Part shown: positions 1,714 through 39,535 of the stretch, one piece after another
Layout of the letters: each line of letters opens with the position of its first letter
How positions within the stretch are numbered: position 1 is the first letter of the stretch
Assembly: GCA_946547105.1 (NCBI GenBank)
Contig: CAMNOV010000002.1
Coordinates: forward strand, 5,055-69,054
Reading direction: 5' to 3'
From: an uncultured Clostridia bacterium
GTDB lineage: Bacteria > Bacillota > Clostridia > Oscillospirales > Oscillospiraceae
Length of the DNA stretch: 64,000 bases
Notes under the pieces: model-generated
The model's input: only the letters and a program-made list of their open reading frames with translations
The model's database searches: none
What the model was told of the DNA's origin: nothing
Made by a program: the position numbers and the translations under genes

Positions 1714-1736
1714 TCCGCAAATAATGCAATGAGAAG

Positions 1737-1766
1737 TAGCGTGGGGTGATCTCCACGCTATTTCTC
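1737..1766 (+). terminator. putative intrinsic terminator after the surface-protein/small-ORF unit
   Basis: tagcgtgg-ggtgatct-ccacgcta hairpin followed by tttctc. The T-tract is weak. Confidence 0.4.
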
Positions 1767-1780
1767 ATATAGAGGAAATC

Positions 1781-2524
1781 ATGGAGAAGATCTATCAGGC
1801 AGAATACGCCGGACATCCGGTGCGCTATGTCTTTTTGAACCCCTTTACGCGCCAGCACTTCAAGTTCTGGCTCAAGCCTGTCGAAGGCGAGGAATACGAC
1901 ATCAAGGCCACGCCGGAGCAGGTCGCGCGGACGCTGGCACATATGCCGGAGACCAATCCGGAATACTACGCCGAGTACAAGTTTCTGATCCTGCCGACGA
2001 GCGACTATCTGCTGCGTTATCGCTGCTGCCTGTTTCACGCGGTGGCCTTTCTCTGGCGCGGCCGCGCCTGGCTGCTCACCGCGCCCAGCGGCACCGGGAA
2101 AACGACCCAGTTTCTGAACTGGCGGAAGCTCCATCCCGGCGAGATCACGATGATCTGCGGGGATCTGCCCGTTCTCGAACTGCGGGATGACGGCTCCGTA
2201 TGGGTACATTCGAGCAACTGGAACGGCAAAGAGGGCGTCGGCAGCTTTCAGTCTGCGCCGCTCGGCGGGACGATCCTGCTCGAGCAGGGCGGTGTGAACC
2301 GGATCGGTCGCCTGAACGTAAGCGAGGCGATCCCGGCGCTGTTCGGACAGTTTATTTCCGAGTACGAGACCGAGGATCAGATCCGTGCGGTCTGCGCGTT
2401 GATGGATGGGATGCTGAGCCGGTATCCGGCCTGGAAGCTTGTCAATCTGGGGGACGATGCATCGACGGAGCTGATGCGCTCAGTGATCGCGGAGGAGACG
2501 GGAGGAAACGATGGAACGGTATAA
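1781..2524 (+). CDS. HprK-related P-loop kinase-like protein
   Basis: RBS agAGGAaatcATG. Walker-A 'LLTAPSGTGKTTQ' lies mid-protein, laid out like the HPr kinase C-terminal domain and the HprK-like kinases of peptide-modification cassettes. The 3' end overlaps the next gene by 14 nt. Confidence 0.6.
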   Translation: MEKIYQAEYAGHPVRYVFLNPFTRQHFKFWLKPVEGEEYDIKATPEQVARTLAHMPETNPEYYAEYKFLILPTSDYLLRYRCCLFHAVAFLWRGRAWLLTAPSGTGKTTQFLNWRKLHPGEITMICGDLPVLELRDDGSVWVHSSNWNGKEGVGSFQSAPLGGTILLEQGGVNRIGRLNVSEAIPALFGQFISEYETEDQIRAVCALMDGMLSRYPAWKLVNLGDDASTELMRSVIAEETGGNDGTV

Positions 2525-2819
2525 AACACGTGCTGGGGTCGTATTGACCTGCGTATGCGGCGAATGGCTGCTGGTTTCGGCTGCCGCGCTGCGGGGCCTT
2601 TGCCCCTTCGTCACCGTCATCAACGAAAGCTCGGCCTTTCTGTGGAAGCGGCTGCAGAGCGGCACGGACGCGGAGGAACTGGAGCGCGCCGTGCGGGAGG
2701 AGTACGAGATCGAGGATCCGGAGACTGTCCGGAGCGTGATCGTGGCCTTTCTGCAGCAGATGCGGGAGATGAATTATCTCGAAGAGGCCGGGAAAGAGAC
2801 CGGCAAAGCAAATGATTGA
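2511..2819 (+). CDS. PqqD-family protein (RiPP recognition element-like peptide chaperone)
   Basis: 102 aa; RBS GGGAGGAaacgATG. The pattern '...GEWLLVS....VINESSAFLWKRLQSGTDAEELERAV.EEYEI.DPETVRSVIVAFLQQMREMNYL' matches the PqqD layout (beta strands followed by a winged helix). Confidence 0.75.
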   Translation: MERYKTRAGVVLTCVCGEWLLVSAAALRGLCPFVTVINESSAFLWKRLQSGTDAEELERAVREEYEIEDPETVRSVIVAFLQQMREMNYLEEAGKETGKAND

Positions 2820-4023
2820 CGAGACGAAGAAGCTTCTGCTGGACGTGCTTTCCTGTGCGATCCGTGGCAAACAGGCGCCGATTACAGATCAACTCAAGAA
2901 AAAACGCATGGCTCTTTTTCAGCTTGCGATGGAGCACCATGTGCTGCCGCTGGTCGTTGATACGCTGTACCATGGGGAAGAAGCAGACCCAACGATGCGC
3001 GGCATGGCCGGGCAGGTCCGGAGCCTTGTGATCGCCCAGGCACAGCGGACGGCGGATTTCCAGCTGCTGCTGCAGCGCTTCGGCCAAAAGGGTCTGTGGC
3101 CTGTCGTGGTCAAGGGCTTGGTCTGCCGGAGCCTCTATCCCGAGCCGGAGCTGCGGCCCTCCGTCGACGAAGATTTACTGATCCGTCCGGAGGACTTTTC
3201 CGTATACGACGCGGCCATGAAGGCCGCAGGCTTTCGCGTGGAGCAGGGCAATGAGGATGAGGATTACGAAATCGTCTATCTGCATCCGGAGAGCGACTTC
3301 TGCATCGAGCTGCACACCAGCCTGTTTCCTGAGGAATCCGAGGCCTACGGCGACTGTGCGCGTTATTTCGACGGCGCGATCGACCGCGCCGTCGATCTGA
3401 CGGTGGAAGGCGTTTCGCTGCGAACGCTTGCGCCGACGGATCATCTGCTGTTTCTGATCTGCCATGCCTACAAGCATCTGCTGCACGGAGGCGTGGGAAT
3501 CCGGCAGCTCTGCGACATGGAGCTGATGATCGAACGCTTTGGGAAAGATCTCGACTGGGGCTATATCCGCAAAAGCTGCGACGGGCTGAGCCTTTCGGTA
3601 TTTACAGCGGCTCTGTTTCGCATTGGGGAAAAGCATCTGGGTTTCGCGATGCCGGAGGCTTTCGTGGACATTGATGTGGATGAGAGCGCGCTGCTGGAGG
3701 ATATCCTCAGCGGCGGTCTGTACGGAGTCGTTGACGTCGACCGGGCACACAGCAGCACGATGACGCTGGAGGCGGTCTCGGCCGCCAGGGACGGGCGAAG
3801 GAGCAAAGGCGCGCTGCATTCGGTATTCCTGCCGCTGGAAGCGATGCGGGGAAACTATCCGTATCTGAGGAGCTGTCCCTGGCTGCTGCCGGCTGCCTGG
3901 GTGCAGCGGATCTTCCGCTATCTGGCGAGAAAAGACCGCTCCGATCCCGTCAACCCCCTCAGAAGCGTCCAGATCGCCCATGAGCGCATCGACCTGCTCA
4001 AGCAGTACCGCATCATTCGGTAA
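2812..4023 (+). CDS. uncharacterised nucleotidyltransferase family protein (NTP_transf_5-like)
   Basis: Overlaps the PqqD gene by 8 nt. 'VVVKGLVCRSLYPEPELRPSVDEDLLIRPEDF' fits the K-G-x-Y-P-x-R-x-D-x-D-L-L signature I associate with PF14907-type proteins found next to PqqD proteins. Confidence 0.6.
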   Translation: MIDETKKLLLDVLSCAIRGKQAPITDQLKKKRMALFQLAMEHHVLPLVVDTLYHGEEADPTMRGMAGQVRSLVIAQAQRTADFQLLLQRFGQKGLWPVVVKGLVCRSLYPEPELRPSVDEDLLIRPEDFSVYDAAMKAAGFRVEQGNEDEDYEIVYLHPESDFCIELHTSLFPEESEAYGDCARYFDGAIDRAVDLTVEGVSLRTLAPTDHLLFLICHAYKHLLHGGVGIRQLCDMELMIERFGKDLDWGYIRKSCDGLSLSVFTAALFRIGEKHLGFAMPEAFVDIDVDESALLEDILSGGLYGVVDVDRAHSSTMTLEAVSAARDGRRSKGALHSVFLPLEAMRGNYPYLRSCPWLLPAAWVQRIFRYLARKDRSDPVNPLRSVQIAHERIDLLKQYRIIR

Positions 4024-4070: not shown

Positions 4071-4104
4071 AAAAGCGGCCCAGACAACGGGGCCGCTTTT
4101 CTGT
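4071..4104 (+). terminator. intrinsic terminator closing the kinase/PqqD/NTase unit
   Basis: aaaaGCGGCCC-agacaacg-GGGCCGCtttt hairpin with a T-tract. Confidence 0.7.
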
Positions 4105-4163
4105 TCATGTCTACGAAATCCTTGTATTTTCCTGGTTTTTACTTCTAATCAATGTGTTTCTTG

Positions 4164-4192
4164 TTGCATTTTATTGCTTAAAAATGTATAAT
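4164..4192 (+). promoter_or_regulatory. near-consensus sigma-A type promoter heading the glycan operon
   Basis: TTGCAT (4164-4169), 17-nt spacer, TATAAT (4187-4192), located in an AT-rich 140-bp gap directly upstream of the ABC exporter gene. Confidence 0.55.
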
Positions 4193-4239
4193 CGATAATT
4201 GGATTGATATGGTCAAATGATAGTGGGTGGAGAAGCGGC

Positions 4240-6024
4240 ATGGAAAAACCGAACGAAGAAAACAAGGCGCTTTTTCAGTCGCTGCATATTTTGAGAAGCC
4301 GTTGGAAAGACGGCACCTTCGGCGAGATCCTGGATGACTGGCGCTGGATCTTCAGCTACAGCAGACGGTATAAGACGGCGATCGTTTTTTATACGCTGCT
4401 TGGCGTGTTCGGCACGACCTTTGGCCTCGTGGCCAGCGTTGCCGGTAAATACGTGATCGATATCATTACCGGGTATGAGACCAGCAAGTTGGGCGCCATG
4501 ATCGCCGTGATGCTGGGCAGCGCACTTTTCAGCCTGGCCTTCTCCAATATCATCAACCGGATCTCTACCAGACTCAGTATCAGCATCCATAACGACATCC
4601 AGGCCGATATTTTTGACCAGATCATCGACGTGGATTGGAAAGCGATCAATCAATACAGCAGCGGGGATCTGCTCAACCGCTTCAACAGCGACGTGAGCAC
4701 CGTCAGCAACAACGCCATCAGCTGGCTGCCTTCCATTATCATTGCCGTTTATAATTTCGTCGTTACCTTTGCTTTGATCTGGCATTACAACAAAGTCATG
4801 TCTCTGCTCGCCTTTGCCAGCGCCCCGATCATGCTGCTGATGAGCAAGTATTTCATCAGAAAGCAGCGGGAATACGCGGCGAAGGTCAAGGAGACCGGCA
4901 GCGAAATGATGGGCTTCGAGGTGGAGACCTTCTATAACTTCGATACCATCAAATCCTTCGGTGTGATGGAAAACTATGGACGCAAGCTGCGTGCCTGGCA
5001 GCAGAAGCTGAAATCCATCACGCTCGATTATAATCTCTTTACGATCAAGACAAATATCTTCATGTCGATCCTCGGCATGATCGTACAATACGCGGCTTTC
5101 GGGTACAGCCTGTTCCTGCTCTGGTCGCACCAGATCACCTACGGCACGATGACGCTGTTCCTTGAACAGCGCAGCCGTCTGTCCGGCGCTTTCAACAGCG
5201 TGGTCGGCATCATCCCCTCGTTTCTGACAAGCTCCGTATCCGCTCACCGCATCCGCGAGCTGATCGAGCTGCCGCGCGAGCGGCATCTGCCGGAGAGCGA
5301 AAAGCTCCGTGAGCTGTCCGACCGCGGCTTCGAGGTGCGGATGAACGAGCTGAGCTTTGCCTACGTGGAAGGCAAGCGCGTGATCGAAGAGTCTGGCTTC
5401 CGGGCCTGCCCCGGAGAGATCGTGGCGCTGGTCGGGCCTTCCGGCGAGGGCAAAACAACGATGATCCGCCTGATGCTCGGGCTGATCCGGCCTGACGAGG
5501 GAAGGGCCTTTCTGCGCGCTGCCGACGGCAGCGAGGTGGAGATGAACGCGGACAGCCGCGGTCTTTTCTCCTATGTGCCGCAGGGCAACACCATTCTTTC
5601 CGGCACGGTGGCGGAAAATCTGCGCCTGGTCAGGGAAGACGCAAGCGACGAGGAACTGATCGAGGCGCTGCAGATCGCCTGCGCCTGGGATTTTATTTCC
5701 CGGCTGCCGGATGGCATCAACACCAGGGTGGGCGAGCGCGGCCGCGGTTTTTCCGAAGGCCAGGCCCAGCGCATCGCCATCGCCCGCGCAGTGCTGCGCG
5801 ACGCGCCGATCCTGCTGCTGGACGAGGCAACATCCGCGCTTGACGTAGCGACGGAGCGCCAGGTGCTGCGCAATATCATCCGCCAGCGCCCGAACAAGAC
5901 CTGCATCGTGACGACCCATCGCCCCACTGTGCTGAACATGTGCCAGCGGGTCTACCGCGTAATGGAACGGCACGTCACCGAGCTGAGCGAGGAAGAATCC
6001 AGCCGCATGGCGATGGACTTTTAA
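4240..6024 (+). CDS. ABC exporter, fused permease/ATPase half-transporter (MsbA/PglK-like type I exporter)
   Basis: Start chosen at ATG 4240 (RBS GGTGGAGaagcggcATG); the track ORF begins at TTG 4204. N-terminal ~300 aa contain 6 TM helices. The NBD has Walker A 'GPSGEGKTT', signature 'FSEGQAQR' and Walker B 'ILLLDEATSALD'. No C39 peptidase domain. Confidence 0.85.
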   Translation: MEKPNEENKALFQSLHILRSRWKDGTFGEILDDWRWIFSYSRRYKTAIVFYTLLGVFGTTFGLVASVAGKYVIDIITGYETSKLGAMIAVMLGSALFSLAFSNIINRISTRLSISIHNDIQADIFDQIIDVDWKAINQYSSGDLLNRFNSDVSTVSNNAISWLPSIIIAVYNFVVTFALIWHYNKVMSLLAFASAPIMLLMSKYFIRKQREYAAKVKETGSEMMGFEVETFYNFDTIKSFGVMENYGRKLRAWQQKLKSITLDYNLFTIKTNIFMSILGMIVQYAAFGYSLFLLWSHQITYGTMTLFLEQRSRLSGAFNSVVGIIPSFLTSSVSAHRIRELIELPRERHLPESEKLRELSDRGFEVRMNELSFAYVEGKRVIEESGFRACPGEIVALVGPSGEGKTTMIRLMLGLIRPDEGRAFLRAADGSEVEMNADSRGLFSYVPQGNTILSGTVAENLRLVREDASDEELIEALQIACAWDFISRLPDGINTRVGERGRGFSEGQAQRIAIARAVLRDAPILLLDEATSALDVATERQVLRNIIRQRPNKTCIVTTHRPTVLNMCQRVYRVMERHVTELSEEESSRMAMDF

Positions 6025-6048
6025 CAGACCGAGCAAGGAGATCCCCGC

Positions 6049-6795
6049 ATGATTGATATTCACAGCCATGTCCTCCCCGGCATTGACGACGGGTCCGCGG
6101 ACATGGAAATGAGCCTGGACATGCTGGCCATGGCGGCGGAAAGCGGCGTGGATACCCTGGTCGCCACGCCACATTGCAATATTCCCGGTGAATTTGAGAA
6201 TTATCTCTCGCAGGACCTGGAGGAGCTTTTCCGGGAACTGCAGCGCGAGGCCGAACGGGACGAGATCCCCCTGCGGCTGTGCCGCGGAATGGAGATCTAC
6301 GCCACGCCCGAGCTGCCGGAGCTGCTGAAGAACGGACGTGTCTGGACCCTCAACGGCGGCCGCTATTTCCTGACGGAGTTCAACTTCGGCGAAAACCCGG
6401 ATTTCTGCAGCTACGTGCTCAGGCAGTGCGCCAGACTGGGTTATCGTCCGATCGTCGCCCACCCGGAGCGCTATTACTTTCTGCAGCGGGATCCCGAGCT
6501 TGCCTACGAGTGGTGCACGGCCGGTTACGGCCTTCAGATCAATAAGGGCAGCCTTCTTGGCCGCTTTGGCCCACAGGCCCGTCAGACGGCGACGCTGCTG
6601 CTGGAGCACGGTCTGGCCGCCTGCGTTGCCAGCGACGCCCATCGCCCCTATGAACGGACCACACACATGGGAGAGGTCAAGGATTATCTGGACAGAGTGT
6701 ACGGCGAGGAATACCGCCGCCTGCTGCTGGAGGAAAATCCGGCGCGCATTCTGGACGGGCGCGAGCTTCTCGGCTATGAACCGATCCCGTTTTGA
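6049..6795 (+). CDS. cpsB: PHP-family protein-tyrosine phosphatase (CpsB/Wzh/YwqE type)
   Basis: 'MIDIHSHVLPGIDDGS' N-terminus plus 'TPHC', 'AHPERY' and 'ASDAH' metal-binding motifs typical of CpsB. Confidence 0.85.
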   Translation: MIDIHSHVLPGIDDGSADMEMSLDMLAMAAESGVDTLVATPHCNIPGEFENYLSQDLEELFRELQREAERDEIPLRLCRGMEIYATPELPELLKNGRVWTLNGGRYFLTEFNFGENPDFCSYVLRQCARLGYRPIVAHPERYYFLQRDPELAYEWCTAGYGLQINKGSLLGRFGPQARQTATLLLEHGLAACVASDAHRPYERTTHMGEVKDYLDRVYGEEYRRLLLEENPARILDGRELLGYEPIPF

Positions 6796-6824
6796 TTAAT
6801 GCAAGACTATAAGAGGAATGAGCT

Positions 6825-7700
6825 ATGAGCATTAAGACATTCAGAACTCTCATCACAGTGTTTTTTCTGTGCGTGTTTACGGTGTTTGCCGTATACCGCG
6901 TGAGGCTGTACCTGGCGTCGGATTCCAAAGCGCCGGTGATCACCGCTGACGTGGATACGATCGAGGCCAGCGTTTCGGTCACGGATGAGGAGCTGCTGGC
7001 CGGCATGCGCGCGGAGGACAACATGGACGGGGACGTTACCGGCTCGCTGGTCGTCGCCTCCAAGTCCAAGTTCATCAAAAAGGGTACGCTGAACGTCAAT
7101 TATGCCGCATTTGACAAGAACAACAACGTCGGCGTGTATACCAGAGAGCTGACCTATGTCGACTATGAGTCTCCGAAGTTCAAGATCACCAAGCCGCTGC
7201 GGATCCTGACGGGCGATACCCGCGCCAATATCCTGGACAACATCAGCGCTTCGGACTGCCTCAACGGCAATATTTCCTCGCAGATCATGTACACACTGGG
7301 CGACAGGACCATGACCAGCGATACGGCCAGCGTCCAGACCCTGAATCTGCAGGTGACGAACAGCGCCGGCGACACGGCTACGCTGGAGCTGGAACTCGAT
7401 TACGACGATTTTACGACCTATTACACGCCCGCGCCGCACCTGAGCGACTATGTGATCTATACCAAGATCGGGGAAGTGCCCAATTACCGCGGTCTGCTGA
7501 TCGGGCTTTGGACCGGCGGCGTGACGCGCGCCTTCACCGGCACGGATTACGATGAGTCAGACGTGCAGATCAACAGCACCCATGTAAACGTCAGAGAGCC
7601 GGGGATCTATCCCGTCTATTACCGCCTGATCAGGACCGATAAGGACGGGGCCCGCGAAATGCTCGGCATTGCCAAGCTTCTTGTGATTGTGGAGGAATAA
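6825..7700 (+). CDS. membrane-anchored protein with two Ig-like (DUF5011-like) domains
   Basis: N-terminal TM 'LITVFFLCVFTVFAVY'. Two repeats follow the pattern 'P.I......(D/S)..L..G..A.D..DG(D/N)(V/I)(T/S)' typical of bacterial Ig-like DUF5011 modules. Confidence 0.55.
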   Translation: MSIKTFRTLITVFFLCVFTVFAVYRVRLYLASDSKAPVITADVDTIEASVSVTDEELLAGMRAEDNMDGDVTGSLVVASKSKFIKKGTLNVNYAAFDKNNNVGVYTRELTYVDYESPKFKITKPLRILTGDTRANILDNISASDCLNGNISSQIMYTLGDRTMTSDTASVQTLNLQVTNSAGDTATLELELDYDDFTTYYTPAPHLSDYVIYTKIGEVPNYRGLLIGLWTGGVTRAFTGTDYDESDVQINSTHVNVREPGIYPVYYRLIRTDKDGAREMLGIAKLLVIVEE

Positions 7701-7703
7701 GAG

Positions 7704-9185
7704 ATGGAAGAAAAAACCGGCATTTCCTCCTTCATGGAGCAGATTGACCTGTACAGTCTGATCCGCGATGTTTTCAAGAATCTGGGTTTCATCCTGCTGG
7801 CTGCGATCGCGGCTTCGATGATCGCGGATATCGTAGTCCGCGACAATTACCAGAACTCCTATACGACGACGGCGACCTTCGTCGTCACCAGCAAGAATTC
7901 CAGCAACTATGCATACAGCAATCTGAACGCGGCCTCTGCCATGGCCGACAGCTACAGCAACATCCTCAACAGCAGCCTGCTGCGAAAAAAAGTCTGCCAG
8001 GATCTGGGCGTCTCCAGCTTTGACGCCAAAGCCAGGGCGAGTGTGATCGCCGATACGAATCTGATGACTCTGAGCGTGACCTCCAGTACGCCGCAGAAGG
8101 CCTATCTGACGATCCGCTCGATCATGCGGACGATCAACGGCCTGACCGGCTATGTTTCCGAGAACATGGTCATGGAAGTGCTGCAGGATCCGCCGGTCCC
8201 CACCAAGCCGGATTCCTCCGTCTCCGTTACCCGGCAGACCCGCCGCGCTTTTCTGCTGACCGGCCTCGCCGTTACGCTTGTCTTCATGTATCTGTCCTAT
8301 CGGCGCGACACGGTCAAGAGCGAGGACGATCTGAAGGAAAAGCTGGACGCGGATTCTCTCGGCGTGCTGTACCACGACCCGGTCTATCACTCGGCAAGCG
8401 ACTTTTTCCGCCGCAGCAAGAGCAAGCACCTGGTCACCGACCTGAACGCCCGCTTCGAATATGTGGAGCGCTTCAAGAAGATCTCCGCCACGATCGCCGG
8501 CATCGCCCGCAAAAAGGGCGTCAAAACGATCCTTGTCACCAGCGTGCGTGAGCATGAGGGCAAATCCACCTTCTCGGCAAACCTCGCGCTGACGCTTGCC
8601 CGCCAGTCCGCCTCCGTTCTGCTGATCGACGGCGATATGCGCCGCCCGACGCTGAATAAGATCTTCCTCAAGCCGGGGGAGAAGCTTGACGGCAGCCTGG
8701 GCGATATGCTACAGGGCAAGGCCAGCATGACGAGCGTGATCTACAACAACAAGGATCTCGGGATTCAGATGCTTCTGAATGACAGAGATTACCCGAATTC
8801 CACGGATATCGTTTCCTCCTACTATATGGAGCGGCTGCTTGAGGTGGCGTCCAAGAGCTTTGACTATATCGTCATCGACTCCCCGCCGATGTCGATCATG
8901 GCGGACGCCGAGGTCCTGGCCGGACTTGCCGACCTGAGCATGCTCGTCGTCGGCTACGACAACGTCCCCGCTCCGGATCTGAATGACGCGATCGATTCGC
9001 TGCGCGACTGCAAGGCCGAGTTCATCGGCTGCGTGCTCAATAACGTGTACACGCTGCCCGGCGCGCACCGGACCGTCGGCGGATACGGCGGATACGGCGG
9101 TTACGGCCGCTACAGCCGTTACTCTCACTACCAGCGCTACGGAAAGTACGGCGGTTACGGTCATTACGGAGACAAATCCAAGTAA
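7704..9185 (+). CDS. fused Wzz/CpsC-like transmembrane modulator + CpsD-like BY tyrosine kinase (copy 1)
   Basis: N-terminal half has 2 TM helices of Wzz type. C-terminal half has Walker A 'EHEGKST', A' 'LLIDGDMRRP', B 'YIVIDSPP' and a Tyr tail 'GGYGGYGGYGRYSRYSHYQRYGKYGGYGHYG'. Confidence 0.85.
   Translation: MEEKTGISSFMEQIDLYSLIRDVFKNLGFILLAAIAASMIADIVVRDNYQNSYTTTATFVVTSKNSSNYAYSNLNAASAMADSYSNILNSSLLRKKVCQDLGVSSFDAKARASVIADTNLMTLSVTSSTPQKAYLTIRSIMRTINGLTGYVSENMVMEVLQDPPVPTKPDSSVSVTRQTRRAFLLTGLAVTLVFMYLSYRRDTVKSEDDLKEKLDADSLGVLYHDPVYHSASDFFRRSKSKHLVTDLNARFEYVERFKKISATIAGIARKKGVKTILVTSVREHEGKSTFSANLALTLARQSASVLLIDGDMRRPTLNKIFLKPGEKLDGSLGDMLQGKASMTSVIYNNKDLGIQMLLNDRDYPNSTDIVSSYYMERLLEVASKSFDYIVIDSPPMSIMADAEVLAGLADLSMLVVGYDNVPAPDLNDAIDSLRDCKAEFIGCVLNNVYTLPGAHRTVGGYGGYGGYGRYSRYSHYQRYGKYGGYGHYGDKSK
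9078..9167 (+). repeat. 10 consecutive 9-bp (X-X-Tyr) coding repeats forming the Tyr-cluster of kinase 1
   Basis: ggcggatac ggcggatac ggcggttac ggccgctac agccgttac tctcactac cagcgctac ggaaagtac ggcggttac ggtcattac. The first three units are nearly identical at the DNA level. Confidence 0.9.
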
Positions 9186-13989: not shown

Positions 13990-14000
13990 AGGGGGATTCC

Positions 14001-15572
14001 ATGCAGTCAATAAAAGATCTTCTGGATCAGTATCCTCAATACCGGGAAAAACTGTATATCCGCGGCTTTCTCCTTTCAAAAGGTGAGGAAGACGAATCAG
14101 TATATCCCTATTACGGTGCATGGAAGCCCTTTTCAATCGGCAGCTATCGTCTGCTCGTACATCCGCTTCAGCATATCTGCATCCGTAATACTGGCTCCTA
14201 TAGTGTAGCCCTTGTCGGACATGCCATGGATCCTTTTGCCCTGGAGGCGAATGAAGCAGTGATTCTGGACGGCTGTCTGGAAGAACTTGAACGAGATGAG
14301 GCATCTTTCTGGAATCGTTTCAATCAGCTTACAGGAGTTTTTACTTGTTTCGTATTTCATGAAGATCGGGTTTGGATCATTGGCGATGCCAGCGGTATGC
14401 AGACTACATTTTATGCCGTACAAAACGGCAAACTATTTGTATCCTCCCATACCATGATGCTGGGCGAGCAGCTTGGACTGAAAAAAGATCCCTATATTGA
14501 TCGACTGATCCGATATCGTTTTTTCCCGCTTCTTGGAAATGCGCTACCAGGCGACCGGACGCAATTTGTCGGTCTTACTCGCGTCACGCCGAATATATGT
14601 ACTATTTTTGAAAATGGTGAAATCAGACGTCGGCGTTTTTTTACCCCTTATAGGATGCCAGAAAAATCGAAGGAAGAGCTGGCGAAAGAAGCTGGCGAGC
14701 TGATAAACCGTACGCTGGTACTGGTCGCTCAAAAATGGAAGAAGCCGGCGATCTCCTTGACCGGTGGATGTGACAGCAAAACGACATTAGCTTGCGCCAG
14801 AGGGGTGTACGATCGTTTTCAGTATTACAGCTACTCGTCCTCTCCGGCCGAGCAAGTTGACTGCGAAGCGGCAGGGATCATTTGCCAGGCACTTGGATTG
14901 GAGCATACTGTCTATTCAATTCCGAACACGTTGCCGGATCATGAAGTGCTTGAAGTCGTAGCCAGGATCCTCCGTTGGAACTGCGGAGATATCCTGGACA
15001 GCAACCCGAATGACGTCAGAAAGCGGATTGTGCTGGATGAGATCGACGATTTTGACGTTGAGGTCAAATCGTGGGCTTCAGAGATCGGCCGCGCTTATTA
15101 TTCCAAACGTTTTCACGGCCGCACAAAGTTTCCGGTGAAGCCCAGCGGCCGTGCCTGCACGACTTTGTATAAGTTTTTCCTCCATGACCGAAAGCTGGTC
15201 CGGGAAACTGACAAAGTGTTTGAAGGTTTTATCAGAGAGTATTATCAGGCTGCTGAGCAGGATCCGATCCCGTGGTTTGAACAGTTCTTTTGGGAATTCC
15301 GTGTACCCGCGTGGAATGGTCTTGTCATTACTGGTGAGCACCGATACTCCTCGGATATCACGATCCCTTACAACAATCGGTTACTGCTGACGATCCTGTT
15401 GAGCGTGCCGATCGAAGAGCGCATTACTGACGCACTGTATACGGAAATCAGAAAGCAGTTTCAGCCGAAGATTGATGCGGCCGGTGTTTCTGTGACAAAT
15501 CTTCACCATACTGAGCGAAGAGAAAAACTGGAGAATTTGTATTGGCTGCTCCATACTGCAATTCCATACTAG
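14001..15572 (+). CDS. asparagine-synthetase-like PP-loop (adenylating) protein lacking the N-terminal Cys nucleophile
   Basis: RBS AAGGGGGAttccATG. 'LTGVFTCFVFHEDRVWIIGDASGMQTTFY' resembles the AsnB GATase-domain core, but the protein starts MQSIK with no Cys2. 'ISLTGGCDSKT' is an SGGxDS-type PP-loop. Confidence 0.5.
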   Translation: MQSIKDLLDQYPQYREKLYIRGFLLSKGEEDESVYPYYGAWKPFSIGSYRLLVHPLQHICIRNTGSYSVALVGHAMDPFALEANEAVILDGCLEELERDEASFWNRFNQLTGVFTCFVFHEDRVWIIGDASGMQTTFYAVQNGKLFVSSHTMMLGEQLGLKKDPYIDRLIRYRFFPLLGNALPGDRTQFVGLTRVTPNICTIFENGEIRRRRFFTPYRMPEKSKEELAKEAGELINRTLVLVAQKWKKPAISLTGGCDSKTTLACARGVYDRFQYYSYSSSPAEQVDCEAAGIICQALGLEHTVYSIPNTLPDHEVLEVVARILRWNCGDILDSNPNDVRKRIVLDEIDDFDVEVKSWASEIGRAYYSKRFHGRTKFPVKPSGRACTTLYKFFLHDRKLVRETDKVFEGFIREYYQAAEQDPIPWFEQFFWEFRVPAWNGLVITGEHRYSSDITIPYNNRLLLTILLSVPIEERITDALYTEIRKQFQPKIDAAGVSVTNLHHTERREKLENLYWLLHTAIPY

Positions 15573-15594
15573 AAAACTGAGAGGGGACTGTTCA

Positions 15595-16578
15595 TTGCAG
15601 CTTTCATTTCTAATAAAAGAAAGAATTCATCTTTTTAATCAAAATATAAAAAAATATAATACTATCAATTACTGCGGATTTGCACCCTTATTATATGTGC
15701 GCTTTTGGGTTGATGAGATTTTTTCTTTCTTTTTCTTTGGCGCCAGCCCCGATGATTATTTTAGATATGAATTCTATAGAAAGTCTTTGTCTGAGCGGAA
15801 TAACTTCATAACGTTTTTAAAAAGCAAAAAGCTTATCAAAAAGTTTAATAGCGAGGACATCGTTCGAAAAATAAACAGTAAAGATGAATTAAATCAGTTG
15901 TTTTCTTGCTATTTACACCGAGAATGGTTGGATTTGGATTCAGCAAATAACGATGCTTTTTCTGATTTTTTATGCAGACATAAGAAGATTATTCTAAAAC
16001 CTAAAACTGGTTCCGGTGGAAAGGGTATTTTTGTCTTATCGCAAGAGGACGTTTCTATCCAAAGAAATGGACTTGAAGAGTATAGAGGATACATAGCGGA
16101 AGAACTTTTAAACCAGCATCAGGCTCTATCGAAAATTAATCCAAGTTCAGTTAATAGCATTAGAGTTATGACTTTTCGTGGAACTATTCTATCTGCTGTA
16201 TTAAAGGTTGGACGTTTAGGGTCAGTTGTAGATAATATGAGCTCTTCAGGGCTGTATGGTAATATAGACTTAGATTATGGAGTAACCAATTCGGTTTTCC
16301 ACGATATTAAATTAAATAACTATTATTACCATCCAGACACAAACGAGAAATTAATAGGACTAACTATTCCTCTGTGGAATGAAGTCAAACAAATTGTTGC
16401 TGAGGCTTCAAAATGTGTCCCAGACTTACAGTATTGCGGTTGGGATATAGCTGTTTTGCCAGATAAGGTAGCTATTATAGAAGTTAATGCTTCTCCAGGG
16501 CATGATTTGTCGATCCAGTCAACACTTCAACAAGGTATTTATAATAAAATACAACAAGAATTAAAGAAAAAGAGTTAA
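15595..16578 (+). CDS. TupA-like 'sugar-transfer associated' ATP-grasp protein
   Basis: TTG start with RBS GAGAGGGGA. 'ILKPKTGSGGKGIFVL', 'IAEELL.QH' and 'IRVMTF' fit the ATP-grasp fold, and the N-terminal region 'DDYFRYEFYRKS' is typical of the TupA-like family. Very AT-rich gene. Confidence 0.65.
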   Translation: MQLSFLIKERIHLFNQNIKKYNTINYCGFAPLLYVRFWVDEIFSFFFFGASPDDYFRYEFYRKSLSERNNFITFLKSKKLIKKFNSEDIVRKINSKDELNQLFSCYLHREWLDLDSANNDAFSDFLCRHKKIILKPKTGSGGKGIFVLSQEDVSIQRNGLEEYRGYIAEELLNQHQALSKINPSSVNSIRVMTFRGTILSAVLKVGRLGSVVDNMSSSGLYGNIDLDYGVTNSVFHDIKLNNYYYHPDTNEKLIGLTIPLWNEVKQIVAEASKCVPDLQYCGWDIAVLPDKVAIIEVNASPGHDLSIQSTLQQGIYNKIQQELKKKS

Positions 16579-16588
16579 CAGCATCAGA

Positions 16589-17719
16589 ATGAAGATCCTC
16601 TTTGTAGCCACGGTGCTCAGCCATATCTGCCAATTCCATCTGCCCTATCTGCGGATGCTGAAGGAGCAGGGGCATGAGATCCACGTGGCGGCTCATGATA
16701 ATTTGGCAGTAAAAAACGGCCTGCAGCTTCGCTATGCGGACAATCATATTGAAATTCCCTTTGAGCGTTCGCCCTTCGACCGCAGAAATATCAAGGCGTA
16801 TCGTCGGCTGAAAGAACTGATCGACGGGGGAAACTATGACCTCATCGTCTGCAATACGCCGGTGGGCGGCATTTTGACCCGTCTGGCGGCGAGGAAGGCG
16901 AGAAAACAGGGAACGAAGGTCGTTTATATCGCCCACGGCTTCCACTTCTTCCGGGGTGCACCGCGAAAGAACTGGCTGCTGTATTACCCGCTGGAAAAGC
17001 ATTTCGCCCGCCTTTGCGACATGGTGATCACGATCAACGAGGAAGATTATCAACTGGCGAAAAGCTGCGTCCCCGGGCGCGTGGAGCACATCCACGGCAT
17101 CGGCGTCGACGGAAACCGCTATCATCCGGCAAGTAAGGAAGAGCAGGGCGTTATGCGGCAGAAAGAGGGCCTGTCCGGGGAGGACTTTGTCGTCCTCTGT
17201 ACGGGCGAGCTCAACGAGAACAAAAATCAGAAAACGCTGATTGCCGCTGCGGCGATGCTGAAGGAGAGAATCCCTCATTTGAAGGTTCTTTTGGGCGGCA
17301 ACGGCCCCAAGGAGCAGGAGCTGAAAGCTCAGGTCCGGGAGCTCGGGCTGGAGGAGACGGTCCGGTTTCTCGGTTACCGCACTGACCTTGAGCGGGTTGT
17401 CCCGGCGGTCGATGTGGTCGTTTCCTGCAGCAGGCGCGAGGGCCTGCCTCTGAATATCGTCGAGGCAATGCTGTGTGAAAAACCGATCGTTGCATCGACT
17501 AATCGCGGGCACCGGGAACTTGTCAAAGACGGAGCCACCGGCTTTCTGCTTGCCCCGGATGACGCCGCCGGCTTTGCTGATCGGATTAAAAAGCTAAATG
17601 ATGATCAAGAACTGAGAAAAATGTTTGGCAGCAAGGGGTTAAGCAGAGCGCAGGCATATACAGTCAGCAGGGTTCAAAAAGAATTACAGATGATAATCGA
17701 TAACTGCGTACTATCTTAA
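16589..17719 (+). CDS. GT4-family glycosyltransferase
   Basis: 'MKILFVATV..H...F.LPYLRML.EQGHEIHV' N-domain and 'E(G)LPLNIVEAM.C.KPIV.S....RELV.DG.TGFL' C-domain carrying the EX7E region. Confidence 0.85.
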   Translation: MKILFVATVLSHICQFHLPYLRMLKEQGHEIHVAAHDNLAVKNGLQLRYADNHIEIPFERSPFDRRNIKAYRRLKELIDGGNYDLIVCNTPVGGILTRLAARKARKQGTKVVYIAHGFHFFRGAPRKNWLLYYPLEKHFARLCDMVITINEEDYQLAKSCVPGRVEHIHGIGVDGNRYHPASKEEQGVMRQKEGLSGEDFVVLCTGELNENKNQKTLIAAAAMLKERIPHLKVLLGGNGPKEQELKAQVRELGLEETVRFLGYRTDLERVVPAVDVVVSCSRREGLPLNIVEAMLCEKPIVASTNRGHRELVKDGATGFLLAPDDAAGFADRIKKLNDDQELRKMFGSKGLSRAQAYTVSRVQKELQMIIDNCVLS

Positions 17720-17746
17720 AGTAAGTCAGAAAACGGGGGATATTGA

Positions 17747-18871
17747 ATGGCGGAGCCGATACGGGTGCTTCACGTTATAGCCGGCATGGGGAGCGGTGGA
17801 GCAGAGTCATTTCTGATGAATATGTGTCGTCATATTGACCGGGATAAGGTTCAATTTGACTTCCTTCTGCGCAGTAATGAAAATATATATACTAAAGAAC
17901 TTGAATCAATGGGCTGCCGGGTTTACTATACGGCTTCTTTTCCGCGCCATTGGCTCAAAAATTTTCTGCAGACATGGAGAATTATAAAGCAGAATCATTA
18001 TAAAATCATTCACGTCCATGCTAATGCTCTACTGTATGTTTTTCCTTTGATTATAGCAAAAAAGCTTAACGTTCCCTGCAGAATCATGCATAGTCATAAT
18101 TCGTCCATGGCCTATAAAAGTGCGCTTCCGATCCATCAGTTTTTTAAAAGTCGGATCAATAGAATCGCTACGCATTGTTTTGCTTGCTCCATGCAGGCAG
18201 GAGAATGGATGTTTTCAGGGCAATACCAGATTATTTGCAACGCCATAGAGGTCGAAAAGTTTCGTTTTGATTCGATGGCAAGAGACAGGATTCGGGCTGA
18301 ATGGAACCTTCCTAAAGACGCAATGGTTATTGGTCATGTCGGCAGGTTTTGGGAACAGAAGAATCATGCTTTTCTCCTGCATGTTTTTTCCAAGGTGCTC
18401 CAGCAGAAACCGAATGCTTATTTGGTGTTGATCGGAGAAGGCGGGCTGGAACAGCAGATCAAAGATCTTGCGTGCAAGTTAGGTTTGAGTGAACACGTTA
18501 TTTTTGCCGGCGTCCGTAAAGACGTTAATAAAGCGCTGAGTGCCTTTGACGTTTTTGCGTTTCCGTCGATTTATGAAGGATTAAGCGTTGTCGTTATTGA
18601 GGCCCAGACAAATGGTTTGCCTTTGATTTGCTCGGAAGCTACGCCAAAATCTGTCCTATTTTCGCCTTATTCAGAGCAAATTCCCCTGGACTACGGTGAA
18701 GATACTTGGTGTCAAAAACTGTTGTCTGTCGGAGGACATAGATGCGATGTGTCAAACGCTATCCGCCAAGCAGGTTATGACATTAGAATAGAAGCTAAAA
18801 AGCTACAGGATTTTTATTGTGAGATTGGACAAAGTTACCGCATAGTTGAAGAGGGAAGAGATGAACACTAA
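17747..18871 (+). CDS. GT4-family glycosyltransferase
   Basis: 'IRVLHVIAGMGSGGAESFLMN' plus 'FAFPSIYEGLSVVVIEAQTNGLPLI.SE'. Confidence 0.85.
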   Translation: MAEPIRVLHVIAGMGSGGAESFLMNMCRHIDRDKVQFDFLLRSNENIYTKELESMGCRVYYTASFPRHWLKNFLQTWRIIKQNHYKIIHVHANALLYVFPLIIAKKLNVPCRIMHSHNSSMAYKSALPIHQFFKSRINRIATHCFACSMQAGEWMFSGQYQIICNAIEVEKFRFDSMARDRIRAEWNLPKDAMVIGHVGRFWEQKNHAFLLHVFSKVLQQKPNAYLVLIGEGGLEQQIKDLACKLGLSEHVIFAGVRKDVNKALSAFDVFAFPSIYEGLSVVVIEAQTNGLPLICSEATPKSVLFSPYSEQIPLDYGEDTWCQKLLSVGGHRCDVSNAIRQAGYDIRIEAKKLQDFYCEIGQSYRIVEEGRDEH

Positions 18872-19841
18872 GTATTCTGTGATTATCCCTGTATACAATG
18901 CGGCTGGCACTCTTCACAGATGTCTTGATAGTCTCGTTGACCAAGCTCAGGGCAGAGCGGAAATCGTTCTGGTCAACGACGGCTCCAAAGATGAAAGCTT
19001 GCGTATCTGTCGGGAATATGAGAGCAAGTATCCCGAAATCAAGGTGATTGATCAGCAAAACGCCGGCGCGTCAGCAGCCAGAAACACTGGTTTGGATGCG
19101 GCCGGAGGAACCTATATCAGCTTCGTTGACAGCGACGACTGTGTACCGGTCAACTACTTTGAATTGCTTGATGAGGCGGGAGACGCTGATTTCGCGATAT
19201 ACGCATATGTCCGTGTTGTGGGAGACAAGCAGATCCCGGTTGACATTCCGCAGAGTATCCTGAAAGAAAACAATCATTATGACAGGATCATTGAGATCGT
19301 CAGGAACCGCTTTGCGGCGCCGTGGAATAAACGGTATAAAAGAAGGATCATAGAAGAGAAAAAGATCCGTTTTAAACAGGATCTGATTATCGGCGAGGAT
19401 TTCCTGTTCGGGTTGACTTATATGCTCTGTTGCCGGAGCAGCTGCGCCTGTGCCGACAGCATTTACTGTGTGGATGAGAGTTCAAGTGCATCGGTTACCA
19501 GAAGCGCCAAATATAATCCGACTCAATTTGTGAAGATCTATGAGTATGCCTTTCCGGTTGTCGAGCAGTGCTCCTGGGATGACATATACCGCGAGCGTTT
19601 GCTGCAGCAGCTGGATTATCTGTTTTGCAGGACTTCTTTCGTGGCTGCGGCTTATCAGCAAAAGACAGAAATCAGTGATTGCTCGCTGAAAGAACTGCTG
19701 CAGGGCTTTTATGATCAAAGCCGCTGGTCCATTCAGCCGTTGAACGCGACGCATGCCCTGATGAAACGCTGTATCAAAAACAAAGCGGCACCGGTATATT
19801 GGGCGGTGTCGTTTATCCGTAATCATCGGGCGGGCAAATAA
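18861..19841 (+). CDS. GT2-family glycosyltransferase
   Basis: Start at ATG 18861 (RBS GAAGAGGGAAGAG), an 11-nt overlap with the upstream gene. 'YSVIIPVYNAAGTLHRCLDSLVDQ', 'VLVNDGSKDES' and 'FVDSDD'. Confidence 0.85.
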   Translation: MNTKYSVIIPVYNAAGTLHRCLDSLVDQAQGRAEIVLVNDGSKDESLRICREYESKYPEIKVIDQQNAGASAARNTGLDAAGGTYISFVDSDDCVPVNYFELLDEAGDADFAIYAYVRVVGDKQIPVDIPQSILKENNHYDRIIEIVRNRFAAPWNKRYKRRIIEEKKIRFKQDLIIGEDFLFGLTYMLCCRSSCACADSIYCVDESSSASVTRSAKYNPTQFVKIYEYAFPVVEQCSWDDIYRERLLQQLDYLFCRTSFVAAAYQQKTEISDCSLKELLQGFYDQSRWSIQPLNATHALMKRCIKNKAAPVYWAVSFIRNHRAGK

Positions 19842-19917
19842 TAAATGCGTTCGTCGGTGATTGCACAGCCGGTTAGAGGGAGCTGTACCGCATAAAAACC
19901 TTCAGGAGGTCTGTGAA

Positions 19918-20766
19918 ATGGGTAATACACTGCGTGAACTGCAGCTTTGTGAACTTCAGATATTGAAAGATGTCAGGATAATCTTTGAGCGACACGGTCT
20001 GAAGTACTATCTCAGTGGAGGAACGCTTCTCGGTGCCGTGAGACACAAAGGTTTTATCCCCTGGGATGATGACATCGATATTATGATGCCGTATGAAGAC
20101 TACCGACGGTTTCTGGAAGTAGCGCAGGAAGAACTGGGAGACAAATATTTTGTTCAGAACAGTGAAACCGATCCAAGCTATGCTTTCGCATACACGCACA
20201 TCAGAAAAAATAATACAACAGTATTAAGTGAGTGGGATAAATTATACTTCTCTCACCACGGAGCATGGATTGATATAACACCGTTAGTACATGTAAAAGG
20301 TAAAAGAGATCGCCGTTTCAAAAATTTTCTTCTTCGAATTTGCTATTTCCTCATCATGGAAGAGAATGCTTTCAAAGTTACTGAGGAATGGCTGGTGAAA
20401 CAGAGCAGCGCAAGAATGGTACGCTTGGTCAAGCTGGTGCGGAAACTGCCGGAATCGCTGCGGAGATGGATCCGAAAAAGACTGCTGCACGTGGTCATAT
20501 ATGAAAAACGGGGCAAGCTCATCAGCTTTATCTGGTCAAGGCTGTCCGTGCCCATTCCGGCCGAGGCCTATGAAGGAGAGCCAGTTTTGCTTCCGTTTGA
20601 AGACGACGTTTTTCCAGCTCCAAAGGGTTATGAGCAGTTCCTAACCATGTCTTATGGAGACTATATGACGCCTCCACCGCCAGAAAGACAGAATGGCGGG
20701 CATGGAGCAAAACTGACCATCGATCTTGAGCACGATTGGACAGAGTATTGTAATGATTTGAATTGA
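19918..20766 (+). CDS. licD: LicD-family phosphotransferase (copy 1)
   Basis: Start at ATG 19918 (RBS AGGAGGtctgtgaa). 'LSGGTLLGAVRHKGFIPWDDDIDIMMP' and C-terminal 'YGDYMTPPPPE' are LicD hallmarks. Confidence 0.85.
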   Translation: MGNTLRELQLCELQILKDVRIIFERHGLKYYLSGGTLLGAVRHKGFIPWDDDIDIMMPYEDYRRFLEVAQEELGDKYFVQNSETDPSYAFAYTHIRKNNTTVLSEWDKLYFSHHGAWIDITPLVHVKGKRDRRFKNFLLRICYFLIMEENAFKVTEEWLVKQSSARMVRLVKLVRKLPESLRRWIRKRLLHVVIYEKRGKLISFIWSRLSVPIPAEAYEGEPVLLPFEDDVFPAPKGYEQFLTMSYGDYMTPPPPERQNGGHGAKLTIDLEHDWTEYCNDLN

Positions 20767-20917
20767 CATTTTTGTTTTTTCATATCTATAACCCGCCGCC
20801 GGATAAACGGAAGCCGCGCTTCCCGCTTCTCGTCAATTTCGAGCGGGAGTATGATTCGTCTGAAGAAGGCGGATTTAAATGGGAAAAAGTTTTTTGAAAT
20901 ATTGATTGGTAGTTATT

Positions 20918-21757: not shown

Positions 21758-21781
21758 TCATTGTTTAGCAAGGAGCTCAAC

Positions 21782-23050: not shown

Positions 23051-23085
23051 CTTGTTCTAGTTGATGAGTTGTTAGGAGCGTAAAG

Positions 23086-28868: not shown

Positions 28869-28919
28869 TTGCTAAGGAAAACAGCATTTCTAAACTTCAT
28901 TACAGATCGGAGAACATCC

Positions 28920-30017: not shown

Positions 30018-30028
30018 AGGAACAAAGC

Positions 30029-31932: not shown

Positions 31933-31976
31933 GCACGGATCGGAACAAATTTGATTTCATCAGTAGGGTAACAACG

Positions 31977-33263: not shown

Positions 33264-33396
33264 AAAGAACCAGAGGCTGACAGCCAGCTCAGATTCCTTT
33301 TCGTAGATAGAGCGATCAAAGTATTGTTCCCGCTGACTATATGATAGGCTTTTATAGCAAAACGAAAGAATCTATGTTCTGCTTGGGGGAAGAGAG

Positions 33397-35508: not shown

Positions 35509-35511
35509 AAA

Positions 35512-36462: not shown

Positions 36463-36488
36463 AGGCGGCTGGCGATAGAGGTTCGTAT

Positions 36489-37514: not shown

Positions 37515-37540
37515 AGCCTTCTGCCATTTGGTGACGATCT

Positions 37541-38107: not shown

Positions 38108-38141
38108 ACAACATGGTCATTCAAAAAGGGAGTGACGGAAG

Positions 38142-38792: not shown

Positions 38793-38941
38793 AACTCCCG
38801 TCTTCGTTCCTTCGTGAGATAACCCTACTCGGCGGTGAAGAACGTGAGCCAGGCAATATCGGATGCTGCTGTATATCTGTGAAGATTTGCGTAATGCCTC
38901 GTGAAAGGAAATAAACATATGTTTCAGTCATTATAGAAAAA

Positions 38942-39457: not shown

Positions 39458-39461
39458 TGTT

Positions 39462-39490
39462 TTCACGGTAAGGGGCAACAATGGTATAAT
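39462..39490 (+). promoter_or_regulatory. possible internal promoter (extended -10) for licD3/deacetylase
   Basis: TTCACG, 17-nt spacer, TATAAT, with TGg immediately upstream (aaTGgTATAAT). Confidence 0.4.
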
Positions 39491-39535
39491 AGTTCATCGG
39501 GAAAGGTTCTTTGTCAGACATACTTGGGAGGATCT

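Follow-up and report, generated by a model that had tools for sequence, protein, structure and literature searches.

A putative LPP-type maturation cassette between a giant surface-protein gene and a capsule locus in an uncultured Clostridia bacterium

We analyzed a 64,000-nucleotide stretch of contig CAMNOV010000002.1 from an uncultured Clostridia bacterium (the whole stretch is called the window below), and within it a triad of overlapping open reading frames (ORFs) at positions 1,781 to 4,023 together with the small gene that precedes them. By gene content the locus is a rumen-bacterial variant of the LPP (linear polyphosphorylated peptide) system that lacks an SpI peptidase, a radical SAM enzyme and a lasso cyclase and that has a giant secreted repeat protein encoded upstream. 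We consider it reasonably probable that the region is an LPP-type maturation cassette acting on a 93-amino-acid (aa) protein, which would be bound by a recognition element for peptides that are made by the ribosome and modified after translation (RiPPs), phosphorylated at Ser26, further decorated and exported. We propose this because the core families, set in a polysaccharide locus, match those that define LPP clusters. The genes at the center of the proposal are the following.

1432–1713, + strand: precursor-like small protein, LppA-like, 93 aa, directly 5′ of an upstream hairpin
1781–2524, + strand: cassette ORF1, 247 aa, ScmC-family P-loop protein of the HprK/PEPCK fold, LppK-like putative peptide Ser/Thr kinase
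2511–2819, + strand: cassette ORF2, 102 aa, discrete PqqD-type RiPP recognition element (RRE), LppB-like
2812–4023, + strand: cassette ORF3, 403 aa, NTP_transf_5 protein, LppN/PsmN-like

The order from 5′ to 3′ is giant-protein gene, 93-aa ORF, hairpin, triad, terminator, ABC exporter and capsule-type operon. An earlier note on this DNA had described three overlapping plus-strand ORFs, and we verified their coordinates as well as the overlaps of 14 nt (ORF1/ORF2) and 8 nt (ORF2/ORF3). All three ORFs are intact, and the overlaps suggest translational coupling.

Popov et al. (Nat Commun 2026, PMC13381572) described LPP clusters (lppA-K-B-S-D-N) of Bacilli, which lie within loci for capsular polysaccharide. 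Their core set is comprised of a precursor, a ScmC/HprK-like kinase, a discrete RRE, an NTP_transf_5 protein and an MsbA-like exporter (PMC13381572). LppK was found by experiment to place several phosphates on core Ser3 of LppA, and LppS cuts off the leader with assistance from the RRE; as to the role of the product, the authors speculate on biofilm formation (PMC13381572). In the domain table of that study the "HprK kinase" is mostly TIGR04249 (ScmC) or TIGR04352, with 67 of 152 matching TIGR04249, while the RRE is PqqD and the pump is TIGR02203/02204 (PMC13381572). The window contains the same core families, its kinase being weakly linked by sequence and likened to LppK through family models and fold. 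Both types of locus are embedded in a capsule or exopolysaccharide (EPS) locus and both are without a macrolactam cyclase. The earlier note had regarded the function of such a module as undescribed; this has been overtaken, since the same core set is now described as LPPs with experimental Ser polyphosphorylation (PMC13381572).

We scanned a single genome for each GTDB species, which returned 537 relatives of the P-loop protein, and 78 loci were kept. Almost all of these are in metagenome-assembled genomes of rumen or gut Oscillospiraceae/Ruminococcaceae, Lachnospiraceae, Erysipelotrichaceae or Christensenella-like bacteria. We scored neighbors by tblastn with the window proteins and by unbiased clustering of all ORFs, with locus counts referring to the 65 loci without a radical-SAM gene and the assessable subset differing by feature. 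Only six neighbors recur, namely the giant protein, the P-loop protein, NTP_transf_5, the ABC exporter and two capsule-operon proteins; PqqD was counted by tblastn because its ~100 aa sit at the 100-aa clustering cut-off. Of the 48 loci with at least 3 kb upstream, 46 have a same-strand ORF of at least 600 aa (typically ~1,500 aa) that ends no more than 1.5 kb upstream of the kinase gene. Among the 57 loci with enough downstream sequence, 46 have PqqD and 38 have NTP_transf_5 within 4 kb. Where both flanks reach at least 8 kb (29 loci), 17 loci have an ABC homologue (at least 50% identity) no farther than 10 kb away and 12 have capsule genes, with neither an SpI-like peptidase nor a ScmE-like radical-SAM enzyme in any (0/29 each).

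We consider the 93-aa ORF to be the probable precursor or substrate of the cassette, which is also the substrate that the earlier note had named first. Its start lies 20 nt past the stop of the surface-protein gene, and most related loci likewise have a small ORF (50–115 aa) directly 5′ of the kinase gene with [F/Y/W]xxPx[ILVM] at residues 3–8. A motif of this kind, [Y/W]xxPx[L/V/I/F/A], is what discrete lasso-type and LPP RREs bind (PMC13381572). In the window it reads F7-D-I-P10-R-I12 (nt 1450–1467). Alignment A4, with 23 sequences of the window's class, has an M-x-K-K-x-[F/W/Y]-x-x-P-x-[ILV] N-terminus in which Pro10 is invariant, then a Gly-rich G-x-G-[S/T]-G-Q segment, in which the Ser26 column is Ser or Thr in 23/23. 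Ser26 of the window protein (in GYGSDQ, nt 1507–1509) is the candidate phospho-acceptor. We rebuilt the start of the LppA sequence from mutagenesis primers in PMC13381572, obtaining the leader MEENTKREQKLYARPMVLSQQPVRFET and the first ten core residues AQSWNKGKGN. The spacing from the motif Pro to the acceptor is +15 for LppA Ser3, +16 for window Ser26 and 15–19 in relatives. The window protein shares with LPP precursors an N-terminal aromatic-xxP-x-hydrophobic motif with a Ser about 15–16 residues past the Pro, and its length is within the published range of 35–200 aa. Conserved position, N-terminal motif, invariant Pro, the Ser/Thr column and the covariation with the RRE described below are together the reasons for favoring the small ORF as substrate.

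The remainder of the protein shows a second conserved pattern. Trp44 is invariant in A4, followed by a D-x-[DN]-x-[DN]-G-x-x-D-x-x-D-Y loop and a Trp-rich helix. In the window this corresponds to an EF-hand/dockerin-like 12-residue loop of the Ca2+-binding type (D52–D63, nt 1585–1620) with the pattern DxDxNxGxDxxD, which in relatives (L012, L013, L014, L016, L017, L052) reads DxNxDGxIDxxDY, flanked by Trp-rich helices. The 93-aa protein itself gave no match in Pfam or NCBIfam, and among ten homologues searched with Pfam, Dockerin_1 and EF-hand_1 remained sub-threshold (E = 0.05–0.18), so that the likeness to a Ca2+ loop is one of sequence pattern. Two further classes of small ORF occur. One (L032, L037, L042, L043, L056–L059, L063, L066) is without the EF-hand-like region and has a C-terminal ...DG(S/R)xVxVDxxGxIVxY motif, with a Y/FxxP leader in most members. 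The other (L051, L064, L067–L071) has a YYxLTxxEY-type start, and the adjacent PqqD gene is often missing.

Independent support for the small ORF comes from the PqqD-type protein. ORF2 matches PqqD (PF05402, E = 7e-11) above the curated cut-off and aligns over its full length to a profile of 12 published LPP RREs (39 bits); its best single LPP RRE match scores 26 bits, compared with 13 bits for a paeninodin-type lasso RRE. In the crystal structure of LppB with LppA, D70 hydrogen-bonds the leader Tyr, N33 fixes the Pro kink and F74 packs on the Pro (PMC13381572). ORF2 shares the conserved Asn (Asn38, equivalent to LppB N33) and retains the F74 equivalent, while the D70 equivalent is Val, which matches the Phe leader of the window's small ORF. 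We aligned the PqqD proteins of related loci to the same profile and read off the LppB positions. The Asn equivalent to N33 is present in 41 of 42 related RREs. At the D70 position, Asp or Glu is found in 14/19 loci with a Tyr leader but in 0/13 loci with a Phe leader, where the residue is Ala, Val, Leu or Gly, and in 0/7 loci with a Trp leader. For all non-Tyr loci together (13 Phe, 7 Trp and 2 irregular) the count is 0/22, giving a Fisher p = 3e-7 uncorrected for shared ancestry. At the level of sequence, then, the leader aromatic of the small ORF tracks the RRE pocket residue, as would be expected if the small ORF is the RRE ligand.

Some genomes (among L022, L016, L018, L023 and L044) have two adjacent cassettes or else a cassette with two PqqD genes, the latter in L023, L026, L027 and L029. 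In L022 two cassettes lie side by side, one at ~10001 on the + strand and one at ~14000–16400 on the − strand, with a leader of the Trp type (WNNPII) in one and of the Tyr type (YMSPVL) in the other. The pair is reminiscent of the way in which RREs of LPP and paeninodin pathways have been described to discriminate between Tyr and Trp.

The assignment of ORF1 was reached through its predicted structure. An AlphaFold2 model built with 29 homologues has a mean predicted local distance difference test (pLDDT) score of 91.4, and its top Foldseek matches are Lactobacillus casei HprK/P and phosphoenolpyruvate (PEP) carboxykinases (E ~2e-6, probability 1.0), which bears out the HPr-kinase-like layout proposed in the earlier note. 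Searches of the PDB by sequence, whether with the single sequence, a 29-sequence profile or the P-loop segment, gave generic P-loop matches only, so for ORF1 the fold comparison was the informative one. Many of the 541 homologues in the database carry the precomputed Pfam family PF27840 "ScmC"; the literature on ScmC/SynChlorMet turned up only unrelated acronyms. The P-loop, APSGTGKT, spans residues A101–T108 (nt 2081–2104). Invariant in the family (alignment A1) are H86, the P-loop including K107, and G127-D128; H86, K107 and D128 would occupy the positions of the HprK His, P-loop Lys and catalytic Asp of the L. casei enzyme. A protein identical to window ORF1 occurs in sheep rumen metagenomes.

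ORF3 is a member of NTP_transf_5 (PF14907, E = 1.9e-46, above the curated cut-off), with a putative catalytic D119-E-D121 (nt 3166–3174) that comes after a Gly-containing strand. In the pseudomycoidin pathway the addition of one or two hexoses to phospho-Ser depends on the NTP_transf_5 protein PsmN, which D134A/D136A inactivates (PMC6993621). The "putative NTP transferase" of LPP clusters belongs to this same Pfam family (PMC13381572). A literature search on PF14907 turned up nothing relevant. Of the models that the earlier note had named, those for PqqD and NTP_transf_5 match these ORFs, and the HprK-related kinase models gave no match. In relatives an extra gene is often found between PqqD and NTP_transf_5 (L001 6669–6989, L004 11023–11361, L005 11041–11397), encoding a 106–118 aa lipoprotein with a signal peptide ending in Cys and an acidic low-complexity tail. 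It has no counterpart in the window, and because it is missing there the window PqqD gene overlaps NTP_transf_5 directly.

The enzymes could be assigned differently. The P-loop protein might be an ATPase, a scaffold or a small-molecule or sugar kinase, with NTP_transf_5 directly nucleotidylylating Ser/Thr of the small protein. We think this unlikely. The window P-loop protein does lack a significant match to curated HprK models, the HprK/PEPCK fold also includes non-protein kinases, no function is assigned to the ScmC proteins of radical-SAM cassettes, and NTP_transf_5 is modelled on aminoglycoside nucleotidyltransferases. Set against this, LppK is needed for Ser phosphorylation and proteins grouped with it are mostly TIGR04249 (ScmC) or TIGR04352, and H86, K107 and D128, with their presumed HprK catalytic equivalence, are invariant in the family.

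Another question is whether the small protein is the substrate at all, given what lies on either side of the cassette. The flanking features are as follows.

2–1411, + strand: gene of a giant secreted surface protein, represented by its C-terminal 470 codons; the reading frame is open from base 2 onward and extends past the 5′ end of the window
1729–1768, + strand: upstream hairpin between precursor and kinase genes, 18-bp stem, core GCGTGGGG-TGAT-CTCCACGC at 1739–1758
~4071–4104, + strand: downstream hairpin, intrinsic-terminator-like, 11-bp GC-rich stem followed by U-rich UUUUCUGUUC, ending the cassette transcript
4204–6024, + strand: MsbA-like ABC exporter, LppD-like, with an ATG at 4240 giving 594 aa; Pfam ABC_membrane and ABC_tran
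6049–6795, + strand: CpsB, in the capsule/EPS operon headed by the ABC exporter
6825–7700, + strand: Ig-like membrane protein, capsule/EPS operon
7704–9185, + strand: Wzz/tyrosine-kinase-type protein, capsule/EPS operon

Full-length relatives of the giant protein have 1400–2500 aa, a signal peptide, Listeria-Bacteroides (Flg_new) repeats by Pfam and no known wall anchor. A homologue search with its C-terminal domain gave 12 matches, the AlphaFold2 model of that domain was poor (pLDDT 59.5), and Foldseek with this model found nothing significant, the best match being a pilin (E = 0.04, probability 0.10). The triad could modify this protein or a component of the capsule machinery, with the small protein an otherwise unrelated partner such as a chaperone or adaptor. 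The giant protein is indeed the most constant neighbor of the kinase gene and the top cluster in the unbiased ORF clustering (53/66 loci), and Y[IL][RK]PY-like strings occur in its conserved C-terminal domain in some relatives. Moreover, the kinase is 50–57% identical where the ABC protein is 78–93% identical, the cassette and giant protein both being far more divergent than the ABC and capsule genes beside them, which suggests that they co-evolve. However, the YxxP-like string is unconserved and reads AFIRIA in the window, whereas the small ORF has an RRE-type motif, including an invariant Pro, at its extreme N-terminus, like true precursors. Its aromatic residue and the RRE pocket residue vary together, and distant relatives of the kinase adjoin classical short precursors. 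We accordingly give modification of the giant protein or capsule machinery little credence and retain the 93-aa protein as the favored substrate of an LPP-type cassette.

Of the core enzymes of other RiPP pathways, lasso cyclase and radical SAM enzymes went undetected in the window, as did SpI peptidases, with no search aimed at YcaO. No ORF of at least 300 aa with an SGG[LIVM]DS PP-loop, as in an AsnB-like lasso cyclase (TIGR01536), was found in the 64-kb window or in any of 84 loci, and the ORF census contained no lasso cyclase-type cluster. For radical SAM enzymes, the window has no ORF of at least 250 aa with CxxxCxxC, and tblastn with a ScmE-like protein finds none there; ScmE-like enzymes were seen only in the distant loci L072–L084. 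Searches by tblastn with five SpI-like peptidases found no SpI leader peptidase in the 64-kb window or in loci L001–L071. No recurrent extra family adjoins the cassette that could represent a B2 transglutaminase-type protease, as judged from ORF clustering and not from a dedicated Transglut_core3 scan. The same arrangement without a cyclase is kept intact at more than 50 loci. This agrees with the earlier proposal of a stand-alone peptide- or protein-modifying module. The companion statement that neither a RiPP core enzyme nor a precursor is present was correct for lasso cyclase and radical SAM but not for the precursor, as the short ORF at 1432–1713 is present. The scenario of homologous triads paired elsewhere with a lasso cyclase that was lost here found no example, there being no PP-loop cyclase ORF in the 84 loci.

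Given a layout that is conserved and intact across loci, the cassette is not a decaying remnant. Although lasso clusters of Bacillota typically carry HprK-like kinase, PqqD and NTP_transf_5 as accessory genes and distant kinase relatives sit in radical-SAM/SpI clusters, a non-functional remnant of a lasso-peptide or radical-SAM RiPP cluster is hardly credible and was rejected, since no cyclase is found at any locus, the three overlapping ORFs are intact and apparently translationally coupled, the layout is kept without cyclase or radical SAM across dozens of species in several families, and functional cyclase-less linear LPP clusters are documented (PMC13381572).

Three other known systems resemble the cassette in part. 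In the paeninodin and pseudomycoidin pathways (PadeK, PsmK, PsmN) an HprK-like kinase acts on the precursor bound to the RRE and phosphorylates a Ser there, NTP_transf_5 is needed for hexose addition, and a discrete PqqD RRE and an ABC exporter are also present. The window differs in having no AsnB-like lasso cyclase and apparently no B2 transglutaminase-type protease, and its candidate Ser lies close to the leader whereas the acceptor Ser of those peptides is C-terminal. Paeninodin-type RREs also have Gly where the window RRE keeps Asn. The SynChlorMet (SCM) system (ScmC, the PqqD protein ScmD and the radical SAM/SPASM enzymes ScmE/ScmF) likewise combines a ScmC-like P-loop protein with PqqD. 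Membership in an SCM cassette was rejected, as the radical SAM/SPASM enzyme is absent from the window and from every locus of its class, and TIGR04249 scores are far below cut-off. The HPr-rel-A system (kinase A, TIGR04352, and PqqD chaperone, TIGR04353) also pairs an HprK-related P-loop protein with a PqqD-family protein. TIGR04353 is the best NCBIfam match of the window PqqD at 21.6 bits, under its cut-off of 35, and TIGR04352 does not match ORF1, so membership was rejected here too; the earlier note had mentioned a family definition joining HprK-related kinase, PqqD and nucleotidyltransferase, and the same scores speak against that assignment.

We also observed a distinct cluster type among the distant kinase relatives (L072 7399–14108, L075 7586–14906, L079 7249–13917, L083 8485–12871). 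Its genes encode PqqD and a ScmE-like radical SAM/SPASM enzyme together with one or two short precursors (MKxYxKPx[LIMF]ExxEL...). A ScmC-like P-loop protein, an S24/S26 SpI-like peptidase and an MsbA-like ABC exporter complete the set, joined by NTP_transf_5 in L072 and L079. Wzz is upstream in L072 and L079, and polysaccharide genes are on both sides of L072 and L083. From its genes this type looks like a radical-SAM-containing cousin of LPP clusters.

Based on the LPP precedent, we propose the following scheme for the window. The 93-aa protein would be the substrate and would be co-transcribed with the giant-protein gene, with the upstream hairpin probably letting part of the transcripts reach the enzyme genes. 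Motif conservation, covariation and the LppB-LppA complex suggest that the PqqD RRE binds FxxPxI (F7–I12). By analogy with LppK acting on LppA Ser3, the P-loop protein would then phosphorylate, and possibly polyphosphorylate, Ser26. NTP_transf_5 may add a group to the phosphate, most likely a sugar as with PsmN, perhaps using nucleotide-sugars from the glycan locus, and the MsbA-like ABC transporter would export the product. There would be no dedicated leader removal. As the locus codes for no leader peptidase, the end product could still be a modified small protein of ~90 aa.

Several observations weigh against this scheme. Every chemical step for this clade is argued by analogy. ORF1 matched no model in the Pfam or NCBIfam copies searched, and TIGR04249 (ScmC) gave weak scores with its close homologues (E = 0.006–0.02) and stronger ones with distant relatives, all far under the model cut-off and with window ORF1 itself unmatched. 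To our knowledge, proven activity of ScmC proteins is limited to LppK-type proteins. The relation between leader aromatic and RRE pocket residue was assessed with a test that ignores phylogeny. The NTP_transf_5 gene went undetected nearby in about a third of related loci, and LppN was inactive in the published heterologous host (PMC13381572), so that a role of NTP_transf_5 in linear systems is presumptive. LppK rejects Thr in place of Ser3, whereas the window clade has Ser or Thr (PMC13381572). The window also lacks the archaeal-type SpI leader peptidase LppS (TIGR02228), whose gene is used to define the family. Its leader aromatic is Phe rather than Tyr/Trp (with Val in the RRE instead of the Tyr-binding Asp), and of the extended LPP leader YxxPxVLxHQxIxFETxxS it is without the HQxIxFET part.

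Other features simply set this clade apart from published LPPs. Instead of a short Gly/Pro/Lys-rich tail, the core of the window precursor is a conserved domain of ~65 aa with the EF-hand-like loop and Trp-rich helix, and the precursor would share a transcript with the gene of a giant secreted repeat protein. The exporter belongs to the following transcription unit, the cassette order being A-K-B-N-(D), and the hosts are rumen and gut Clostridia and Erysipelotrichia in contrast to Bacilli.

The exporter is nevertheless tied to the cassette. Its best NCBIfam matches are TIGR02204 and TIGR02203, the models that define LppD. It follows the cassette directly, without capsule genes, in L047, L054 and L068 and lies within the cassette in L050 and L060. 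The earlier description of the exporter as merely the opening gene of the glycan operon thus falls short, as it recurs as a cassette partner even in loci without capsule genes, while the ties of the cassette to a glycan locus and a surface-protein gene proved real and are conserved among related loci. In L005, L009, L010, L017 and L064 the ABC-capsule block is upstream on the opposite strand. Just 5′ of the window exporter start, TTGCAT-17 nt-TATAAT at 4160–4195 (identified by eye) looks like the promoter of the exporter/capsule operon; a consensus scan skipped it because its −35 element matches at only 3/6 positions. Further downstream, G+C content is 0.39–0.48 at ~14000–24000 and 28000–41000, compared with 0.55–0.65 in the remainder of the window, and this suggests horizontally acquired, serotype-specific glycosyltransferase blocks.

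Comparison of the window with L001, L004 and L008 reveals an uneven pattern of divergence. The exporter and first capsule genes (4204–9185) are 89–93% identical, whereas the kinase, RRE and NTP_transf_5 proteins are 57–61% identical and the giant protein ~30%. From these identities, the giant protein and cassette form a hypervariable block beside a conserved one, a pattern to be expected if a surface structure is subject to diversifying selection or is often exchanged.

The upstream hairpin is a conserved feature in its own right. Folding of the surrounding 75 nt gives −32.8 kcal/mol (z = −7.3), and a strong hairpin occupies the equivalent position in 28 of 31 related loci examined. Twelve loci keep the arms GAATAGCGTGG...CCACGCTATTC nearly unchanged, with P-loop proteins only 39–74% identical to that of the window. 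In 15 loci the core pattern occurs once per locus, directly 5′ of the P-loop gene; the window has 2 occurrences, with 0.09 expected. We also noted that the arms TAGCGTGG / CCACGCTA scarcely change from one bacterial family to another (L007–L044; e.g., L008 9954–9974, L016 9935–9954), and that Erysipelotrichaceae loci have a compensatory change from A-U to U-A (GAAUUGCGUG...CACGCAAUUC). Conservation of the arms and this compensatory change suggest recognition by a protein or RNase besides termination. The hairpin is probably an attenuating terminator or an mRNA-stabilizing or processing element, the U-rich 3′ side being the reason for the reading as a leaky terminator. Such a terminator would keep the precursor and giant-protein mRNA abundant relative to enzyme mRNA, and an excess of precursor over enzyme mRNA is common in RiPP operons. 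Of the two hairpins said in the earlier note to bracket the triad, both exist, but the upstream one does not mark the start of a transcription unit. As an operon boundary it was ruled out, because it is an inter-gene element conserved 3′ of the precursor gene in related loci.

The cassette may be of interest beyond this locus. For LPP and paeninodin-type systems peptide phosphorylation was shown in 2026. The clade described here extends the LPP-like family beyond Bacilli, adds to the published Tyr/Trp discrimination a third leader type in which Phe is combined with a hydrophobic RRE pocket residue, and, peptidase-less and linked to giant surface proteins, could help to assign a function to LPP systems. 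Should its chemistry equal that of published LPPs, the clade would extend a known family only incrementally. That the cassette is constantly paired with a capsule operon and a gene for a giant secreted repeat protein suggests, speculatively, that it serves the architecture of the cell surface and does not make an antibiotic, and this linkage offers a concrete functional context for the LPP family. As a long shot, the modified 93-aa protein may be a surface adaptor, in which NTP_transf_5 extends the Ser-phosphate into a phosphoglycosyl link to a capsule or wall polymer and the EF-hand/dockerin-like Trp-rich domain docks, with Ca2+, onto the C-terminal domain of the giant protein. If true, this would constitute a ribosomal-peptide-based, sortase-independent way of tethering adhesins to the glycan layer, and would provide a function for the whole LPP family.

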